A DNA stretch of 64,000 nucleotides, taken from an uncultured Pedobacter sp. (GTDB taxonomy: Bacteria; Bacteroidota; Bacteroidia; Sphingobacteriales; Sphingobacteriaceae). This document shows, piece after piece, positions 8,002-18,196 of the stretch (position 1 is the first letter of the stretch; each line of letters begins with the position of its first letter). A program made the translations under genes and the position numbers. The notes below the pieces were generated by a model. It did not search any database, was not told the DNA's origin, and saw nothing but the letters and a program-made list of their open reading frames with translations. The stretch spans positions 75,460 through 139,459 of the forward strand of contig CAZQFF010000002.1 in assembly GCA_964592575.1 (NCBI GenBank), in the 5' to 3' direction.

Positions 8002-9039
8002 ATGAGTAAAAAAATAAATACAGCCATTTTAGCATTTGGGATGTCTGGAAAGGTATTTCATGCCCCATTTATTAATGCTAATGAGCATTTTAATTTCTAC
8101 GCTGGCCTTAAAAGACATCAATCAAGAATAGAGTCTTTATACCCAAATGTTAAATATTTTGAAGATTTTGATACGTTGCTAACAGATTCAGAAATTGAAT
8201 TGATTGTAATTAACACCCCAAATTTTACTCATTTTGAATTCGCTAAAAAAGCTTTACTAGCTGGAAAACATATTTTAATCGAGAAACCATTTACAACGAC
8301 TTTTTCTGAAGCAGATACTTTGTTTAATTTAGCAAAAGAGCAAAATAAATGGATTTTTGTTTATCAAAATAGACGCTTTGACAGCGGATTTAAAGCTTTT
8401 AAAGCGGTTGTTGACTCCAATTATCTTGGTAAATTAGTTGAAGTTCATTTCCGTTTTGATCGATATAGAAACCAAATAGGCCCAAAACTATTTAAAGAAG
8501 AAAAGATGCCGGGTTCTGGTCTTTTATATGATTTGGGTCCGCATTTAATTGATCAAGCGATTAGCCTTTTTGGCAAGCCTATTAAGTTTATAAAAACACT
8601 AAGTTATAACCGAGAAAAAACGCAAGTTGATGATTACTTTCAAATTCACTTAAGTTATCCAAACCAGCTTCAAGTGTTTTTAACGTCTAGCTTTTTAGTC
8701 GCCGATTCTAGAGAAGCATTTATAGCGCATAGTTCGAAAGGGTCCTTTTTAAAAATGCACGCTGATGTTCAAGAGAAACAACTCCTTAATGGTTTGAGCC
8801 CATTAGACCCTACTTATGGTTGGGAGAACCCTAACGATCATGGTCAACTTACTTACCTAAATGATGCTGGAGACTTTTCTAAAACAAAATGGCCTTCTGA
8901 GCAAGGCAACTATATGGAATTCTTTGATGCCGTTTATAAAAGTTTACGAAAAGGACAAGCTTTCCCTATCACTAAATTAGAAATTTTATGGCAGATTAAG
9001 ATCTTAGAAAGCCCAAATGAGGAAATTGTTTCGATATAA
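8002..9039 (+). CDS. Gfo/Idh/MocA-family oxidoreductase (YdgJ-like)
   Basis: AFGMSGKVFH, NTPNFTHF, IEKPF, YQNRRFD, GLLYDLGPHLID. Confidence 0.9.
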   Translation: MSKKINTAILAFGMSGKVFHAPFINANEHFNFYAGLKRHQSRIESLYPNVKYFEDFDTLLTDSEIELIVINTPNFTHFEFAKKALLAGKHILIEKPFTTTFSEADTLFNLAKEQNKWIFVYQNRRFDSGFKAFKAVVDSNYLGKLVEVHFRFDRYRNQIGPKLFKEEKMPGSGLLYDLGPHLIDQAISLFGKPIKFIKTLSYNREKTQVDDYFQIHLSYPNQLQVFLTSSFLVADSREAFIAHSSKGSFLKMHADVQEKQLLNGLSPLDPTYGWENPNDHGQLTYLNDAGDFSKTKWPSEQGNYMEFFDAVYKSLRKGQAFPITKLEILWQIKILESPNEEIVSI

Positions 9040-9068
9040 TTTATATTTTTGAGTTTTAATCCATTCAC

Positions 9069-10556
9069 ATGACCACTTTCGAAATAGGTTTTAAACCATT
9101 AAGTTTAGATCTCATCCAAAATATTATTGAATCAAATGCTAAATTGGCTTTATCGAATGAAGCTATTGAAAAAATAGAGTATTGCCGCGCTTATCTTAAT
9201 CAAAAAATGGCTAATTCAGATCAACCAATTTATGGGATCAATACAGGTTTTGGATTTCTGCAGCATGTTAAAGTGGAAAAAGAAAACTTAAGCCAGCTTC
9301 AACACAATCTTTTGCTGTCTCATGCTTGCGGCACTGGCGAGGAGGTACCTCAAGGCATTGTTAAATTGATGTTGCTTTTAAAGATTCAATCACTGAGTTA
9401 TGGCCATTCTGCCGTCGCTTTATCCACCGTTAATAGGTTGATCGACTTTTATAATCATGACATTCTACCCCTTATTTATACACAGGGTTCTTTAGGTGCA
9501 TCAGGTGATTTAGCTCCTCTAGCTCATTTAAGTATTCCATTAATTGGTGCTGGAGAAGTCTATTATAAAGGTGCCAAAATGTGCAGCCAAGATATGCTTA
9601 ATGAAATGGGCTGGGAAAAAATTCAATTACAAAGCAAGGAAGGTTTAGCGCTAATTAATGGCACACAGTTTATGAGTGCATATGGCATTCATTGTTTATT
9701 AAATGCCAAAAGATTATCCCACTGGGCTGATGCTATTGCTGCGGTTTCTGTTGATGCATTTGATTGTAGGATTGACCCATTTTTAGCTGTGAGTCATGAT
9801 ATTAGACCACATAAAGGCCAAAGGCAAACCGCCGCTAATTTATTGAATTGGCTAAAGGATAGCCCAATGATCAATAAAGTAGGCAAACAAACGCAAGATC
9901 CCTATTCATTTCGTTGCATACCCCAAGTTCATGGCGCAAGTAAAGATACGCTAGATTATGTCCTTTCTATTTTTGAAACGGAAATAAATTCGGTTACCGA
10001 TAATCCCAATGTATTTCCTACAGAAGACTTAATTATTTCTGCAGGTAATTTTCATGGCCAACCATTAGCATTGGGATTTGACTTTTTAAGTATTGCCTTA
10101 GCAGAATTAGGATCCATTTCTGAGCGTCGAAATTTTCAATTAATATCTGGGGCAAGAGGTCTAAGTCCGTTCTTAGTTAATGATCCAGGTTTAAATTCTG
10201 GCTTCATGATAACTCAATATACAGCGGCTTCTATTGCAAGTGAAAACAAACAATTATGCACGCCAGCATCTGTTGACAGCATAGTTAGCAGTAATGGACA
10301 AGAAGACCATGTTAGTATGGGTGCCAATGCGGCTACGAAATGTTATCGTGTAGTTTTAAATTTAGAGCGGATTTTAGCCATAGAACTTCTAACAGCAGCT
10401 CAAGCTTTAGACATGAGAAGGCCTGATAAATCATCAGCTTTCGTTGAAGGATTACTAACTGCTTATCGAGAAAAAGTAACTTTTAATACCGCTGACCGAT
10501 TATTGGCCAGCGATATAAAGTTTAGCATTGATTTTTTGAAAAATTATAAGTTTTAG
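9069..10556 (+). CDS. hutH: Histidine ammonia-lyase
   Basis: YGINTGFG, MIO-forming GASGDLAPLAH, QDPYSFRCIPQVHG, TDNP, QEDHVSMG. Confidence 0.95.
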   Translation: MTTFEIGFKPLSLDLIQNIIESNAKLALSNEAIEKIEYCRAYLNQKMANSDQPIYGINTGFGFLQHVKVEKENLSQLQHNLLLSHACGTGEEVPQGIVKLMLLLKIQSLSYGHSAVALSTVNRLIDFYNHDILPLIYTQGSLGASGDLAPLAHLSIPLIGAGEVYYKGAKMCSQDMLNEMGWEKIQLQSKEGLALINGTQFMSAYGIHCLLNAKRLSHWADAIAAVSVDAFDCRIDPFLAVSHDIRPHKGQRQTAANLLNWLKDSPMINKVGKQTQDPYSFRCIPQVHGASKDTLDYVLSIFETEINSVTDNPNVFPTEDLIISAGNFHGQPLALGFDFLSIALAELGSISERRNFQLISGARGLSPFLVNDPGLNSGFMITQYTAASIASENKQLCTPASVDSIVSSNGQEDHVSMGANAATKCYRVVLNLERILAIELLTAAQALDMRRPDKSSAFVEGLLTAYREKVTFNTADRLLASDIKFSIDFLKNYKF

Positions 10557-11835: not shown

Positions 11836-12654
11836 TTAAACTTCTTTTTCTTTAAACTTCAAATAGCTCAGTGTAAACACATATATACTAATTATGAAGA
11901 TAATAACTGTAAATACTTGCATTGGATTTATATCCCAATTTATTTTAGGCTGATCCATTTCACTAGGAATACGGCCATTAAAAATCCATTGCCCCATTTT
12001 TATCCAAATTAGAGCTAACATACCTAAACTCAATATAGTACTCAATGTTATTTTGATGTATGTAAATCGAGTAAAGGCTAAGGACCCAAATTGGTAAATA
12101 GCAACAATCATTGTCCCTATGGCTAATAGGAAAGGAAATAGATCATCTAGAAATGTTTCCAGAATTAACGGAAACTTTTGTTCAGAGCTAGCCGAGCTAA
12201 TCATGCCGTCAATACTCAGCCCTTTAGCTTCATACCAGCTTCTTAATTTTAAAATAAAAGCCATATCTACTAAATAAAAAACGATTAATAAGGCTCCTAT
12301 TCCGCAAATTAATGTATAAAAAACAGAGGCTAAAAACTTTTCTATTCGACTTGCTGGCAACATAATATCTGTTATTACTCTACCCTTATGTCCAAAATGA
12401 GAAAAATAATGATTACCGATTAAGCTTAGAAAAATAATGCTTTGCACTATAAATAAAGGGTATCTAAATGTGGTAGAAAAAATTTGATTCTCAATATTAT
12501 ATTGATTGCTTATAATAGATAAATAGCCCATCACATAACAGAAAACTGTTATAGCTAATATGATAACAAAAGTAGATAGGTAAACTTTTCCTAAATCTAA
12601 CCATTGTCTTTTCAATAGCTTAAAAAAGCGTGATATATCAAATGTTTGTTTCAT
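11836..12654 (-). CDS. ABC transporter permease-like membrane protein
   Basis: About 6 hydrophobic segments; MLPASRIEKF motif; between ABC ATPase and GntR. Confidence 0.7.
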   Translation of the reverse strand: MKQTFDISRFFKLLKRQWLDLGKVYLSTFVIILAITVFCYVMGYLSIISNQYNIENQIFSTTFRYPLFIVQSIIFLSLIGNHYFSHFGHKGRVITDIMLPASRIEKFLASVFYTLICGIGALLIVFYLVDMAFILKLRSWYEAKGLSIDGMISSASSEQKFPLILETFLDDLFPFLLAIGTMIVAIYQFGSLAFTRFTYIKITLSTILSLGMLALIWIKMGQWIFNGRIPSEMDQPKINWDINPMQVFTVIIFIISIYVFTLSYLKFKEKEV

Positions 12655-13518: not shown

Positions 13519-13610
13519 GGTATAACTATATACTAATTACATCCAAATATTTTGAAAAAAATTTTAACAATAACACACAAAGCATTGATTTACAGATAAA
13601 TAAAATAAAC

Positions 13611-13644
13611 AAAAAAGCCTCCACCTAAACTATAGGGGAGGCTT
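13611..13644 (-). terminator. Intrinsic terminator of the TonB-dependent receptor gene
   Basis: aagcctcc(a)cct/aggggaggctt stem followed by U6 on the minus strand. Confidence 0.7.
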
Positions 13645-13662
13645 CTAACTAACCTAAAATTA

Positions 13663-16026
13663 CTATAATGGAATATTAATCCCCAAATTAAAATTACGAC
13701 CAGGATTATAAATACCAATCGGCTTAAAGCGACTTAAATGATTTATATATTTAACATTACCCAAGTTTTGAGCGCTTAACCAGATGTTAATTTTACCCTT
13801 TTTTGTAGGAATACCTGTACCTATAGCAACGTCTATTAAACCATATGATGGCGTTTTAGTTTCAAAATCGGTAAATCTATTTTGAGCAAAAACATGGTTA
13901 TAGCTTAACTTTATATAACTATTAACGACATGTTTAAAACTTGGTTCAAACACAATCTCATGCTGTGTACTAGCGGCAGGTATAAATGGGAGAGCCTTTT
14001 TATCTGATAAATTAGTTCCTTTGACGATTGAAAATGAATTTTCTAAATGAAGAGCCTCAATAATATGAAAATCCAAATTAGCCTCTCCTCCTATTAAATT
14101 AGCATTATTTTGGGTAAACCTGAATACCGGAAGACTATGATCATGATCTCCATGCTCGTCTTCAATAACTTCATTATTAGATCGAGCAGCATAGATATAA
14201 TTATAAATTCTATTATTAAATGCATTTAAGCCAATAGACAAAAATTCAGAATTATACTCCAGACCTAAATCAACCTGAAAACTAGTTTCTTGCTTTAAGT
14301 TAGCGTTTCCAATTTCATATCTAAATGTTCCGTGATGTGTTCCGTTAGAACCTAATTCAGCTATATTAGGCGCTCTAAAACCCGTTCCTGCATTAGCCCT
14401 AAAAACTATATTCGAACTCAGGTCATAAGCTAAACCTAGTGATCCCGAAAAATTAGAAAAATTATTATCAAAGGAGGCAAATCGCTGTTCGCTTCCCTCA
14501 GTCAAGGATTGAGCACTTAAATTTTTATAATCATATCTTAAACCTAAATTCCAAGCTCCTTTGTCAAAATTCTTCTTTAAATAAGCAAATAGACCAATAT
14601 TAAAACTCTGATAATTTGGAATTAAATATTCTTGCCCTTCATTAGCATTACTTTGATACATCCCTTGTAATCCAAAAGTTGGTTCCCAACCATTCAAATT
14701 ACCCAATGCGTATTTTATGTCGTATGTAAATGAATTTAAACCCATCTTGATCCCTACACCACCATCTTCTTCGTGTGCATGTTCATCTTCTGCATGAACA
14801 TCTCCTTCATGCGTTTCTCCATCAAGCCCATGCTCATCTTCATGAGCATGAAACTCAGTTCTCTTATTTCTTTGAAATCCAAAACTAGATTTAAGCTGCC
14901 CGCTACCAAGTAAGATATTACTATTCAAAGCCGTTCTAAAATGAGTAATATGTTGGTAAGGATTATTTAGCTTTCTAGATAATAAAGAATGATCGCCACT
15001 AAAATGGAAACTTCCATCATCTTCTGGACCTTCTTCAATTAATCCAATATTCGTATCAAATCTAGAAACTGTAAGGTGACTATAACCCCAACTTTTATTA
15101 ACACCTAGTAAAGCACTTAGATTATTCTCATTAAAACCAGAATTAGGCACATAAGCTCCAGGACTTCTAAAAGCATGAGCATTTTTATAAGAAGCTCGAG
15201 CTCTATACACAAAACCATTTTGATTCCCCTGATACATTAAAGAAGAAGCACTTAAGCCATTGTTACTGCTATAAGCCGTAGTGAAACTACCCTGTTGAGT
15301 ACCATGTGCTGGCACAAAATCATCGATTACATTGATTACACCCCCTAAAGCATCAGACCCATATAATAAACTAGCAGGGCCTTTTAAAATTTCAACTCTA
15401 GAAGCAGAAAACTGATCCAATTGAACACCATGTTCCTCACCCCATTGTTGAGATTCTTCACGAACCCCGTCAACTATAGTTAATACTCGATTAAAGCCTA
15501 ACCCCCTTATACTCGGTTTAGAGATAGCTGCACCTGTACTAACTTGTTCTATACCAGGCAATTTTGCTAAAGCCTCAATTAGATTATTTGCGCCAGATTG
15601 CGTTAACTTTTCTCGATTACTGGTAATAACAGCCAAACTACTATGTTTGGATTTGCCACTAAACGGCGTACCAGTAATAACTACCTCAGCGCTCTCAATA
15701 ACTGCAGTTTCCATTTCAAGTAAAATAGTATTTGGATACTGCATATCTACTAAAACTGAATTCGCTTTGTAGCCTAAATAACGAACCTCCAATAAAAATT
15801 TCCCCTTATTAGGTAAGTTTTTCAGCACAAATTCACCTTGGTAATTAGTTTGTGTGTTTATTTTCAAATCATTAATAAAAACAGTGGCTCCAGGTAATGG
15901 ATGTTTAGTTTCTTTATCAATTACTTTTCCGCTAATTTCTGCAAACGCAGTACCTTCAATAGCAAAAGAAGAGAAGTTAAATGCTAGTAAAAAAGCTAGC
16001 ACAGGCAATAATATCTTAAATTTCAT
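13663..16026 (-). CDS. TonB-dependent receptor with His/acid-rich loops (metal uptake, ZnuD-like)
   Basis: Signal peptide; CarboxypepD_reg-like N-domain; plug (PSIRG, VEILKGPASLLYGSDALGGVIN); PGRNF C-terminus; HAHEDEHG..HAEDEHAHEE and EDEHGDHDH loops. Confidence 0.9.
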   Translation of the reverse strand: MKFKILLPVLAFLLAFNFSSFAIEGTAFAEISGKVIDKETKHPLPGATVFINDLKINTQTNYQGEFVLKNLPNKGKFLLEVRYLGYKANSVLVDMQYPNTILLEMETAVIESAEVVITGTPFSGKSKHSSLAVITSNREKLTQSGANNLIEALAKLPGIEQVSTGAAISKPSIRGLGFNRVLTIVDGVREESQQWGEEHGVQLDQFSASRVEILKGPASLLYGSDALGGVINVIDDFVPAHGTQQGSFTTAYSSNNGLSASSLMYQGNQNGFVYRARASYKNAHAFRSPGAYVPNSGFNENNLSALLGVNKSWGYSHLTVSRFDTNIGLIEEGPEDDGSFHFSGDHSLLSRKLNNPYQHITHFRTALNSNILLGSGQLKSSFGFQRNKRTEFHAHEDEHGLDGETHEGDVHAEDEHAHEEDGGVGIKMGLNSFTYDIKYALGNLNGWEPTFGLQGMYQSNANEGQEYLIPNYQSFNIGLFAYLKKNFDKGAWNLGLRYDYKNLSAQSLTEGSEQRFASFDNNFSNFSGSLGLAYDLSSNIVFRANAGTGFRAPNIAELGSNGTHHGTFRYEIGNANLKQETSFQVDLGLEYNSEFLSIGLNAFNNRIYNYIYAARSNNEVIEDEHGDHDHSLPVFRFTQNNANLIGGEANLDFHIIEALHLENSFSIVKGTNLSDKKALPFIPAASTQHEIVFEPSFKHVVNSYIKLSYNHVFAQNRFTDFETKTPSYGLIDVAIGTGIPTKKGKINIWLSAQNLGNVKYINHLSRFKPIGIYNPGRNFNLGINIPL

Positions 16027-16125
16027 AAATGTGTTTTAAGGTTAGAAAAAAAATTCTAATAAATTGATGCATAGACATAGTATATGCCTATAATTGGCTA
16101 ATAAACAAGCCTAGTATAAAAGAAA

Positions 16126-16461
16126 TTAAGATAAGGAAGGGGGACCTCTTAGTTGAGCATGTGGAATCTCAGTATCCACATCTAGCTCTACAAGGTTAAT
16201 AAATTTGAAATCCTGATAAAGGTTTATAAGTGGCTCAACTTCATTTGACAATATAAATGCCTTTTCAAAATGAGCTTTACAAACTAGACAATTATCTTTT
16301 TGCGTAGTAACATGTATCTTATGCGTACAATGCTCCTCTGCAACCTGTACACTGCGACTTTCATGTTGGTGAAAAATAGAGAATGGGGTAATAGCAAAAA
16401 GAAACACGCCTAGTAATAGACGGGTAAACAGTTTTATCATATTTTCCCTTTTATTTTTCAT
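16126..16461 (-). CDS. His/Cys-rich small protein ending RGPP (DUF2946/CruR-like leader ORF); start revised to 16461 or 16440
   Basis: Hydrophobic N-segment, HQH, HCTHKIH, CLVCKAH, LRGPPSLS*; 99 nt upstream of the TBDT; -7 box TAATTTTG at 16473-16480. Confidence 0.7.
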   Translation of the reverse strand: MKNKRENMIKLFTRLLLGVFLFAITPFSIFHQHESRSVQVAEEHCTHKIHVTTQKDNCLVCKAHFEKAFILSNEVEPLINLYQDFKFINLVELDVDTEIPHAQLRGPPSLS

Positions 16462-16472
16462 ATTGCGGAAAA

Positions 16473-16507
16473 CAAAATTATTCATTTAATTAAAAATCCT
16501 AAATTTG
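16473..16507. promoter_or_regulatory. Back-to-back -7 boxes: TAATTTTG (-, 16473-16480) and TAAATTTG (+, 16500-16507)
   Basis: TAnnTTTG matches facing the leader/TBDT and hutU. Confidence 0.5.
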
Positions 16508-16528
16508 AATTTGTAACATTGCCTTGAT

Positions 16529-18196
16529 ATGACCACTAAAACTCTAGAAAACTTAAACTTATCTAAAAAAATGACTCCTCAAGGGAATCAATTAACTTGT
16601 AAAGGCTGGGTGCAAGAAGCCGCATTGCGAATGTTATTAAACAACCTTGACCCAGAAGTTGCCGAAAAACCGGAAGAATTAATTGTATATGGTGGTAGAG
16701 GAAAAGCGGCAAGAAATAAAGAAGCATTAGCCCTTATTATCAAAGCACTTCAAAATTTAGAAGAAGATGAAACGCTATTAATACAGTCAGGTAAACCAGT
16801 GGGGATTTTACCGACTCACAAGGATGCTCCCCGTGTGTTAATTTCAAACTCTCAGCTTGTCCCTAAATGGGCAACGCAAGCTCATTTTGATGAGTTAGAA
16901 GATAAAGGTCTAATGATGTATGGTCAAATGACAGCTGGTTCTTGGATATATATTGGTTCGCAAGGAATTGTTCAAGGAACTTATGAAACCTACGCAGCAT
17001 TAGCAAGAAAGCACTTTAATGGCGACCTCAGTGGAACCTTAAATGTTACAGCAGGATTAGGCGGGATGGGAGGTGCACAACCTCTGGCTATTACGATGAA
17101 TAAAGGTGTTTGCTTAGCGGCTGATGTAGAAGAGTGGAGAATTAAGAAAAGATTAGAAACTCGATATATTGACGAAATTGAATACAACATTGATATTGCT
17201 ATCGATAAAGCAATAGCTTATAAATCACAAAACAAAGCTATTTCAATAGGCGTCGTTTGTAACGCCGTTGAATTATTACAGGAATTAATCGATCGAAATA
17301 TAACCCCAGATACACTTACTGATCAGACATCAGCTCACGACCCACTAATTGGATATTTTCCAGTCAATTTGACTGTAGAAGAAGCCAATAAGCTTAGAGA
17401 GACTAATCCTGAAGAGTATATTAAAAGGTCATATGCCACTATGGCAAAACATGTAGAACTCATGCTTCAATTGCAAAAAAATGGGGCTATTACATTTGAT
17501 TATGGCAATAATCTAAGAGGTAGAGCTTTTGAAGTGGGTATAAAAAATGCCTTTGATTTTCCAGGTTTTGTTCCAGCCTATATTCGTCCATTATTTTGCG
17601 AAGGTAAAGGACCTTTTAGATGGGCAGCCTTAAGTGGGGATCCGCAAGACATCTATGAAACCGATAAGGTCATTTTGGAATTATTTCCAGAAAACGAAGC
17701 CTTAAAACGATGGATTCAAATGGCTCAAGAAAGAATCGCCTTTCAAGGTTTGCCTGCTAGAATTTGTTGGCTAGGTCAAGGAGAGCGTGAAAAAGCCGGT
17801 TTAGCGTTTAATAAACTAGTAGCTGAAGGTAAGGTAAAAGCACCAATTGTAATTGGCAGAGATCATTTAGATACGGGTTCCGTTGCCTCTCCTAACAGAG
17901 AGACAGAGGCAATGTTAGACGGCTCAGATGCCGTTGCCGATTGGCCCATTTTAAATGCCTTAATCAATACAGCAGGAGGTGCAAGTTGGGTTTCATTACA
18001 TCATGGAGGAGGGGTTGGTATAGGCTACTCCATTCACGCTGGAATGGTTGTAGTTGCCGATGGAACTGAAGATGCGGCAAGGCGGCTTAAAAGAGTATTG
18101 CACAATGACCCGGCAATGGGTGTAATTAGACATGCCGATGCAGGTTATGACATTGCATTAGATACTTTGCGTAAACACCGTTTAGGTTTAAAATAA
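16529..18196 (+). CDS. hutU: Urocanate hydratase
   Basis: [58 protein letters not shown]. Confidence 0.97.

Follow-up and report, generated by a model that had tools for sequence, protein, structure and literature searches.

A His/Cys-rich leader peptide ending in Arg-Gly-Pro-Pro, a likely metal-sensing arrest leader, precedes a ZnuD-like TonB-dependent transporter in Pedobacter

The 64,000-nucleotide (nt) window analyzed here, a stretch of contig CAZQFF010000002.1 from an uncultured Pedobacter species of the phylum Bacteroidota, carries a small open reading frame (ORF) of 111 codons plus a TAA stop (16126..16461, minus strand; translation MKNKRENMIKLFTRLLLGVFLFAITPFSIFHQHESRSVQVAEEHCTHKIHVTTQKDNCLVCKAHFEKAFILSNEVEPLINLYQDFKFINLVELDVDTEIPHAQLRGPPSLS) immediately upstream of, and co-oriented with, a gene for a TonB-dependent transporter (TBDT). 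We propose that this ORF is likely a metal-sensing arrest leader of the transporter, comparable to CruR of Bordetella and CutF of Rhodobacter, and that the metal is probably zinc. An initial annotation of the window had suggested a CruR-like arrest leader, and at the level of sequence that reading holds: across the family defined below, the terminal Arg-Gly-Pro-Pro (RGPP) motif or its variant lies 2-5 amino acids (aa) from the C-terminus in 49 of 50 ORFs, the distance from a CxxC motif to this motif is 42-46 aa, the gene directly downstream of the leader is a homologous TBDT in 41 of 51 family-profile matches, and a promoter precedes the leader. We classify the family as a conserved Bacteroidota version of the CruR/CutF/RAPP-leader kind, distinct in its sequence family, ligand set, probable metal and transcript layout.

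The checked translation from ATG 16461 agrees with the composition first reported for the ORF. It contains seven His and three Cys residues, clustered as HQH (residues 31-33), HCTHKIH (44-50) and CLVCKAH (58-64), and ends in RGPP (codons AGA GGT CCC CCT, 16138..16149, minus strand; the predicted arrest site) followed by the three-codon tail S-L-S and TAA (16126..16137, minus strand). The longest ORF call in this frame begins at ATG 16485 (16126..16485, minus strand, 119 aa), but this start was ruled out because the -7 promoter box at 16473..16480 sits 3' of it, which places ATG 16485 upstream of the box and outside the transcript. Behind a Lys/Arg-rich start, the suggested membrane-targeting segment corresponds to 20 hydrophobic residues (LFTRLLLGVFLFAITPFSIF, residues 11-30; 16372..16431, minus strand), recognized by inspection of the sequence and overlapping an AlphaFold2 helix at residues 2-24. 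Within it, L, F, A, I, T and P are conserved in the family alignment; it is probably an uncleaved signal anchor with its N-terminus inside, both the topology and the lack of cleavage being predictions. AlphaFold2 is confident for this helix only, and residues 30-111 have pLDDT below 50.

Immediately after the anchor, residues 31-64 (16270..16371, minus strand) form a His/Cys cluster that the alignment resolves as HxH, CxHKxH and CxxCxxH. H31 and C58 are invariant and H33, C45, H47, H50, C61 and H64 are at least 90% conserved among 42 diverse members, and these eight residues are potential metal ligands. The pattern C-x-H-x2-H-x7-C-x2-C-x2-H yields only weak Pfam matches, all of them to zinc-ribbon or zinc-finger models. 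Between the cluster and the arrest motif lie FEK and a linker (residues 65-104; 16150..16269, minus strand) that is variable in sequence and fixed in length across the alignment.

A HMMER scan covering 1.84 billion representative sequences (50% identity clusters) recovered 41 relatives of the leader. The family is present in all 36 Pedobacter genomes searched and, by profile search across the phylum Bacteroidota, in 24 of 401 genomes belonging to 16 genera and several classes. Mean column identity in the 42-sequence alignment is 24%, yet F and P of the hydrophobic segment, the adjoining HxH, CxHxxH, CxxCxxH..K and R-G-P-P are invariant or at least 90% conserved, each of R, G, P and P reaching at least 90%; after the N-terminal anchor and HxH, the clusters typical of the family read CxHKxH and CxxCxxHFEK. 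The 2.2-Mb source genome has 2,089 ORFs of 90 aa or more; RGPP occurs in them once, in the leader, and RAPP and KGPP are absent from the same set. Because the motifs are conserved against so low a mean identity and RGPP is unique in the genome, the ORF is unlikely to be a product of chance. The source genome is 100% complete by marker genes, while the same-genus genomes searched are mostly 3.6-6.9 Mb; it represents a strongly reduced Pedobacter lineage that has nevertheless retained the leader-TBDT pair.

Motifs and spacings were counted in 50 distinct family ORFs taken from genome loci, 42 of which carry CxxC. The terminal motif is RGPP in 42, RAPP in five and KGPP in three, with a Leu directly before it in 40 of the 50. 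The distance from CxxC to the motif falls within the range given above in 42 of 42 CxxC-bearing ORFs and is exactly 43 aa in 29, including the Pedobacter leader, although the intervening sequence is not conserved. Since the linker is conserved in length only and the motif is fixed a few codons before the stop, this arrangement suggests a ruler measured to the ribosome and is unlike a folded domain.

The leader also belongs to a class that has recently been cataloged. Fujiwara et al. (2025, EMBO J, PMC12992588) showed that proteomes strongly exclude RAPP and RGPP and that the remaining occurrences concentrate close to the C-terminal ends of small proteins that are secreted or located in membranes; in their reporters RGPP arrested ribosomes most robustly, across several peptide contexts, and this arrest withstands EF-P. 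The uniqueness of RGPP in the source genome matches the proteome-wide avoidance described there, and the leader fits the class: at 111 aa it is shorter than 300 aa, and it combines a putative localization signal with RGPP three residues from the end and a co-oriented TBDT immediately downstream. The same survey counts 4,450 leader ORFs with RGPP that precede genes carrying the annotation "TonB-dependent receptor", among them WP_132536099.1 (...FAIALTPWSVLHHH...CLICNASFEK...LRGPPLA), an unmistakable member of the Pedobacter leader family that also precedes a TonB-dependent receptor (PMC12992588). The idea is accordingly less new than the initial annotation assumed, since both the class and a direct family member were already on record. 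The catalog is nevertheless a motif-based census in which the Bacteroidota family, its His/Cys pattern, the 43-aa ruler, the promoter and the RNA features are not defined, and its experiments covered only Streptomyces examples and CruR (PMC12992588). A full-text literature search found no paper characterizing the Bacteroidota leader family.

The partner gene encodes a TBDT of 787 aa (13663..16026, minus strand) with Pfam CarboxypepD_reg, Plug and barrel domains. As first described, it is co-oriented with the leader across a 99-nt spacer (16125-16027) and bears His-rich loops, which on inspection are His/Asp/Glu-rich and span residues 395-424 (14755-14844, minus strand) and 622-633 (14128-14163, minus strand). 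Among NCBIfam models it scores 170 bits against TonB-hemin and 155 bits against ZnuD, both far below the cut-offs, and 65 bits against TonB-copper. Its closest solved relative is ZnuD (4rdr, E 5e-25), but the ZnuD model NF038289 has a curated cut-off of 950 bits, and for this reason we call the transporter ZnuD-like rather than a ZnuD equivalog. In the ten family-profile matches where the next gene is not a homologous TBDT, it encodes a small lipoprotein in six and an ABC-transporter ATPase in three, the latter belonging to leader paralogs with KGPP.

Transcription of the pair most probably starts ahead of the leader. Promoters of Bacteroidota carry a -7 element with the consensus TAnnTTTG, and ATG 16461 follows a box of this type (TAATTTTG, 16473..16480, minus strand) at a distance of 11 nt. 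Of 48 family loci, 36 have such a box ahead of the first in-frame leader start, 0-25 nt and most often 5 nt away, and it is absent from all 41 leader-TBDT spacers scanned. A separate TBDT promoter was ruled against on the same ground, a sigma-70 scan being uninformative for Bacteroidota. Because the box precedes the leader and none is found in the spacers, the TBDT is most probably expressed only by read-through from the leader promoter. The short distance from the box to ATG 16461 also implies a near-leaderless mRNA with a very short 5' untranslated region, transcription being predicted to begin at approximately 16466-16468. Downstream of the TBDT, a GC-rich hairpin followed by UUUUUU (13607..13646, minus strand; -21.1 kcal/mol, z -4.0) is a predicted intrinsic terminator, and we interpret leader and TBDT as a two-gene operon ended by it. 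Many orthologous leaders (L005-L029) seem to start with TTG or GTG just 5 nt after the -7 box, and the transcripts that such starts imply, leaderless or nearly so and with a start codon other than AUG, would be unusual.

The nearest functional parallel is CruR (Bp2923), a DUF2946/PF11162 protein whose gene in Bordetella pertussis precedes that of the TBDT BfrG (Roy et al. 2022, PMC9426467). In that system, expression of BfrG requires arrest at RAPP, which lies three residues before the stop, and CxxC is needed for the response to copper, which relieves the arrest so that Rho terminates transcription before the TBDT; the 45-residue spacing between CxxC and RAPP is kept in more than 2,000 proteins, altered spacing impaired regulation, and sensing is independent of the CruR signal peptide (PMC9426467). 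Both are small leaders heading the operon of a TBDT, exported in the case of CruR and predicted to be so in Pedobacter, with a metal importer as the regulated or presumed regulated gene, and both contain CxxC, a spacer conserved in length (45 residues in CruR, 43 in Pedobacter) and R-[AG]-P-P three residues before the stop. This is a likeness of architecture and not of homology. The initial annotation had recommended a search against DUF2946; neither the leader ORF nor its 42 family members matched at E up to 1, the six-frame translation of the genome gave no match at E up to 10, and when hhalign compared the family alignment with 12 annotated DUF2946 proteins listed in the supplement of Fujiwara et al., the probability was 0.8%, with only 15 columns around CxxC aligned. 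Membership in DUF2946/PF11162 was therefore rejected, and with both the HMM and the profile-profile tests negative, we treat the family as an analog or a very remote relative of DUF2946. The two also differ in that the Pedobacter ligands are the His-rich HxH, CxHKxH and CxxCxxH and the motif is RGPP rather than RAPP, the probable metal is zinc rather than copper, and the transcript is near-leaderless; likewise, the Pedobacter genome is AT-rich and its 99-nt spacer has no C-rich rut-like region, whereas CruR is followed by 162 nt and depends on Rho for termination.

CutF is the leader of cutFOG in Rhodobacter capsulatus, where a paused ribosome unfolds a stem-loop masking the next ribosome-binding site (Ozturk et al. 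2023, PMC9973294). CutF is exported during translation, as is predicted for the Pedobacter leader, and both carry a Cys motif and, at the C-terminus, a Pro-rich motif of the stalling kind; the opening by a paused ribosome of RNA that masks the initiation region of the next gene is an output that we propose for Pedobacter. CutF differs in belonging to DUF2946, in having CxxxC and in bearing a Sec signal peptide that can be cleaved. In cutFOG the stem-loop lies over a Shine-Dalgarno sequence, whereas the Pedobacter arm covers the start codon itself; and copper prolongs the CutF stall and turns on a detoxifying oxidase, opposite to the logic of an importer. SecM-secA, ApdA and ApdP share with the Pedobacter leader a C-terminal arrest motif of the R-A/G-P-P type, and in these systems pulling force relieves the stall and the stalled ribosome remodels downstream mRNA structure. 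They monitor protein export and regulate secretion factors, however, while the ligands and partner gene in Pedobacter point to metal.

From these parallels a sequence of events can be put forward. The hydrophobic segment would target the nascent chain to the membrane, and at Arg-Gly-Pro-Pro peptide-bond formation would stall, as is known for RGPP, with the P site holding peptidyl-tRNA that ends in Arg-Gly-Pro and the A site holding Pro-tRNA, by analogy with characterized arrests. Because 43 residues separate H64 from the P-site Pro107, and given the usual length of the tunnel, the His/Cys cluster would at that moment lie just past the ribosomal exit. When metal is absent, the stall would persist and the TBDT would be made. 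When metal is present, most likely zinc, the cluster would bind it and fold, pulling on the chain and releasing the stall; translation would then terminate and TBDT expression would fall, by analogy with CruR and with force release by zinc fingers. When zinc makes a small zinc finger fold close to the tunnel exit, arrest is reportedly released by the resulting force, with SecM serving as the force sensor. The stall could be coupled to the TBDT either by opening a helix between the leader stop region and the TBDT start codon, as in SecM and CutF, or by preventing premature termination of transcription, as in CruR.

Taken to its most specific form, the proposal is a mechanical zinc sensor in which the 43-residue ruler times the emergence of the cluster, a zinc-folded knuckle releases the RGPP stall, and the stalled ribosome, on a near-leaderless transcript in a phylum that makes little use of Shine-Dalgarno pairing, uncovers the start codon of the importer. 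We hold this complete version to be rather doubtful. If true, it would give Bacteroidota their first characterized arrest-peptide regulator and would also be the first nascent-peptide switch to respond to zinc.

For the first coupling option, a candidate long-range helix joins a 5' arm (UAUCUUAAUUUC, 16122..16133, minus strand), made up of the two final leader codons, the stop and the next 4 nt, to a 3' arm (GAAAUUUAAGAUA, 16012..16024, minus strand) that takes in the G of the TBDT start codon and codons 2-5. This 12-bp helix closes the minimum-free-energy fold of the leader 3' end and spacer, and the predicted duplex energy is -8.9 kcal/mol, compared with -4.0 in shuffled sequences (z -3.4). 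With Pro107 held in the P site, an arrested ribosome would sit over approximately the 5' half of the UAUCUUAAUUUC arm. Pairing of the stop region with the start region has z below -1.64 in 22 of 41 loci and is stronger in many relatives than in the Pedobacter window. RNAalifold recovers the same helix in a subgroup of 12 Pedobacter sequences with one compensatory change (stop TAA to TGA with UUA to UCA), and the genus contains three distinct sequence versions of the stop/start pairing. That a stalled ribosome unmasks the TBDT start by opening this helix is, in our estimate, a possibility somewhat short of even, the alternatives being control by transcription termination as in CruR or some other mechanism.

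The spacer contains further structure. A weak hairpin with the stem GGCU/AGCC (16096-16111, minus strand), placed 14 nt past the stop, is succeeded by a stronger one of 10 bp (16070-16092, minus strand); neither has a U-run. In most relatives, a hairpin beginning 12-14 nt past the stop shows compensatory changes in its stem, mostly again with no U-run. As a rule such hairpins are unlikely to be intrinsic terminators, given the missing U-run in most of them and in both of the window, although those of L025, L020, L016 and L032 look terminator-like. The post-stop hairpin could instead be a polymerase pause site or an RNA-stability element. The spacer region between leader and TBDT gave no Rfam match at E up to 1.

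Several observations weigh against the arrest-leader reading or against parts of it. With no detectable homology to DUF2946, the CruR mechanism is carried over by analogy. The window helix ranks only 66th among 414 co-directional gene pairs of the same genome, which is unexceptional, and as strong evidence in the window it was downgraded on that account. The closest relative (L002/L058) has no stop/start helix, and the register of the pairing varies between subgroups, so that homology of the helix cannot be demonstrated. Likewise, the post-stop hairpin is strong in relatives but weak in the window, and in many orthologs TTG or GTG starts stand right after the promoter; such starts on leaderless mRNA are inefficient in Escherichia coli. 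The alignment supplied to AlphaFold2 for the leader was shallow (14 sequences). Finally, the metal is deduced from the partner gene only, and CxxC with His would bind copper too.

This last point bears on the choice of metal. Within the metal-sensing reading, we consider zinc the best guess at slightly better than even, because ZnuD is the best relative of the TBDT, the hemin and ZnuD models give its highest NCBIfam scores, its loops are rich in His, Asp and Glu, and the weak Pfam matches of the leader are of zinc type. The preference for zinc, nickel or cobalt over copper expressed in the initial annotation is compatible with ZnuD being the closest solved relative of the transporter, which fits zinc but does not amount to proof. 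Copper remains the serious alternative, since every characterized system of the class senses it: the same arrest-leader design could respond to copper ahead of a TBDT that imports copper or a copper complex. CruR senses copper through its CxxC, Cu(I) is bound by His/Cys sites, CruR and CutF as the experimentally studied members of the class both sense copper, and the TBDT has its weak 65-bit match to TonB-copper. Against this, the transporter scores far higher on the ZnuD and heme-type models (155-170 bits), its loops are rich in His, Asp and Glu, and it lacks the Met-rich sites that are typical of copper receptors. The leader itself presents eight His/Cys ligands in a zinc-knuckle-like pattern with no Met clusters, and leaders upstream of copper-related genes are lacking in Bacteroidota in the survey of Fujiwara et al. 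(PMC12992588). We consequently regard a copper-sensing leader as unlikely.

Two further explanations dispense with metal-responsive arrest. The ORF could encode an accessory protein of the transporter that is stable, anchored in the membrane and binds metal in the periplasm, for instance a metallochaperone or a partner of the receptor, with RGPP as a structural or interaction motif; the anchor and the His/Cys cluster are conserved as they would be in a functional protein, and the gene has its own promoter and is tightly linked to the TBDT. Against this, proteomes strongly avoid RGPP and RAPP, and in this genome RGPP is unique to the leader. The position of RGPP close to the end, after a linker conserved in length only, points to a ruler and not a fold, no confident structure is predicted for residues 30-111, and the comparable CutF is degraded once exported. 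This explanation seems to us quite improbable. The ORF could also be an arrest leader that monitors a cue other than metal, either membrane insertion through Sec or YidC, in the manner of SecM and MifM, or periplasmic thiol-redox state through a CxxC disulfide. An N-terminal anchor with a C-terminal arrest motif is indeed the layout of a secretion monitor, and RGPP/RAPP leaders also precede DsbA and thioredoxin genes (PMC12992588). Yet the downstream gene here is a metal-type TBDT and not a secretion or redox factor, six conserved His would go unexplained by a redox or secretion sensor, and in six loci the alternative partner is a His-rich lipoprotein, and we judge a non-metal cue very improbable.

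If the metal-sensing arrest-leader reading is correct, it would widen a narrow field: nascent-peptide metal control has been shown experimentally only for copper and in Proteobacteria (CruR and CutF), and the present family would extend it to Bacteroidota and probably to zinc uptake. A ligand set unrelated to that of DUF2946 but with the same 43-45-residue ruler suggests either convergence on a mechanical constraint or its very deep ancestry. Translation in Bacteroidota is initiated largely without Shine-Dalgarno pairing, and the leader and TBDT, present in every Pedobacter genome searched, would offer a compact two-gene system for arrest control under these conditions. After the 2025 survey of Fujiwara et al., specialists will not be surprised by such a leader, but the family is still a clean entry point for zinc-responsive sensing by nascent chains.

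Annotation would benefit as well, in that "hypothetical proteins" upstream of TBDTs, and also DUF6769 proteins, should be recognized as regulatory leaders. DUF6769 (PF20558), a Bacteroidota family of unknown function, is the nearest Pfam relative: nine of 42 leader-family members match it weakly (best E 0.0016), the leader ORF and its Pedobacter relatives stay below the Pfam gathering score, and a search of the source genome at E up to 10 gave nothing. DUF6769 proteins that exceed the cut-off (L052-L054) begin with a hydrophobic stretch, continue with PHHHH and a central part rich in Cys and His, and close with GLRAPP and 2-4 further residues; they differ from the Pedobacter family in being longer, in ending with RAPP and in their Cys pattern. 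Based on the weak matches, DUF6769 is probably a sister family of the same kind, and since the layout of anchor, PHHHH, Cys/His region and GLRAPP near the end is the same, it is probably another family of arrest-type leaders.

Two variations on the leader locus were observed elsewhere. Three Pedobacter genomes contain second leader copies (L049, L050 and L051) with HHH after the anchor, CxxC, and N-K-G-P-P followed by 4 residues; their CxxC-to-motif spacing is 46, and they lie 49-88 nt upstream of an ABC-transporter ATPase gene with no TBDT. A kinship of this ATPase with the ABC operon neighboring the leader in the window was considered and dropped, as the identity of approximately 31% is generic. 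In more distant Bacteroidota (L030, L037, L039, L041, L044 and L046), the RGPP or RAPP leader precedes the lipoprotein gene mentioned above, whose product of 150-290 aa has an N-terminal run of the HDHDH type and a conserved HGDHxD motif. The three lipoproteins scanned (from L030, L039 and L041) matched no Pfam family, and the group may be an uncharacterized family of surface metal-binding proteins.

Upstream of the leader, a conserved box (CAATGTTAC, 16513..16521, minus strand) lies approximately 32 nt from the -7 box and inside the 5' leader of hutU. Its position is kept in all Pedobacter loci (L001-L029), including those with no hutU within the 1.5-kb flank. In a promoter search of the source genome, no other promoter was found to bear the box, and it was dropped as a regulon marker. 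It could be a regulator site, and it resembles a half-site of Zur-type operators (AATGTTAT).

The divergent neighbor is hutU, which encodes urocanase (16529-18196, plus strand); its own -7 box (TAAATTTG, approximately 16497-16504) stands back to back with the leader promoter. Urocanase is the divergent neighbor in approximately 20 Pedobacter loci. In L001 and L003, hutH (histidine ammonia-lyase; 8775-10269, minus strand) directly follows the TBDT, and in L002 four genes separate the TBDT from hutH (11892-12315, minus strand). A functional tie between histidine catabolism and the uptake of His-chelated metal is conceivable.

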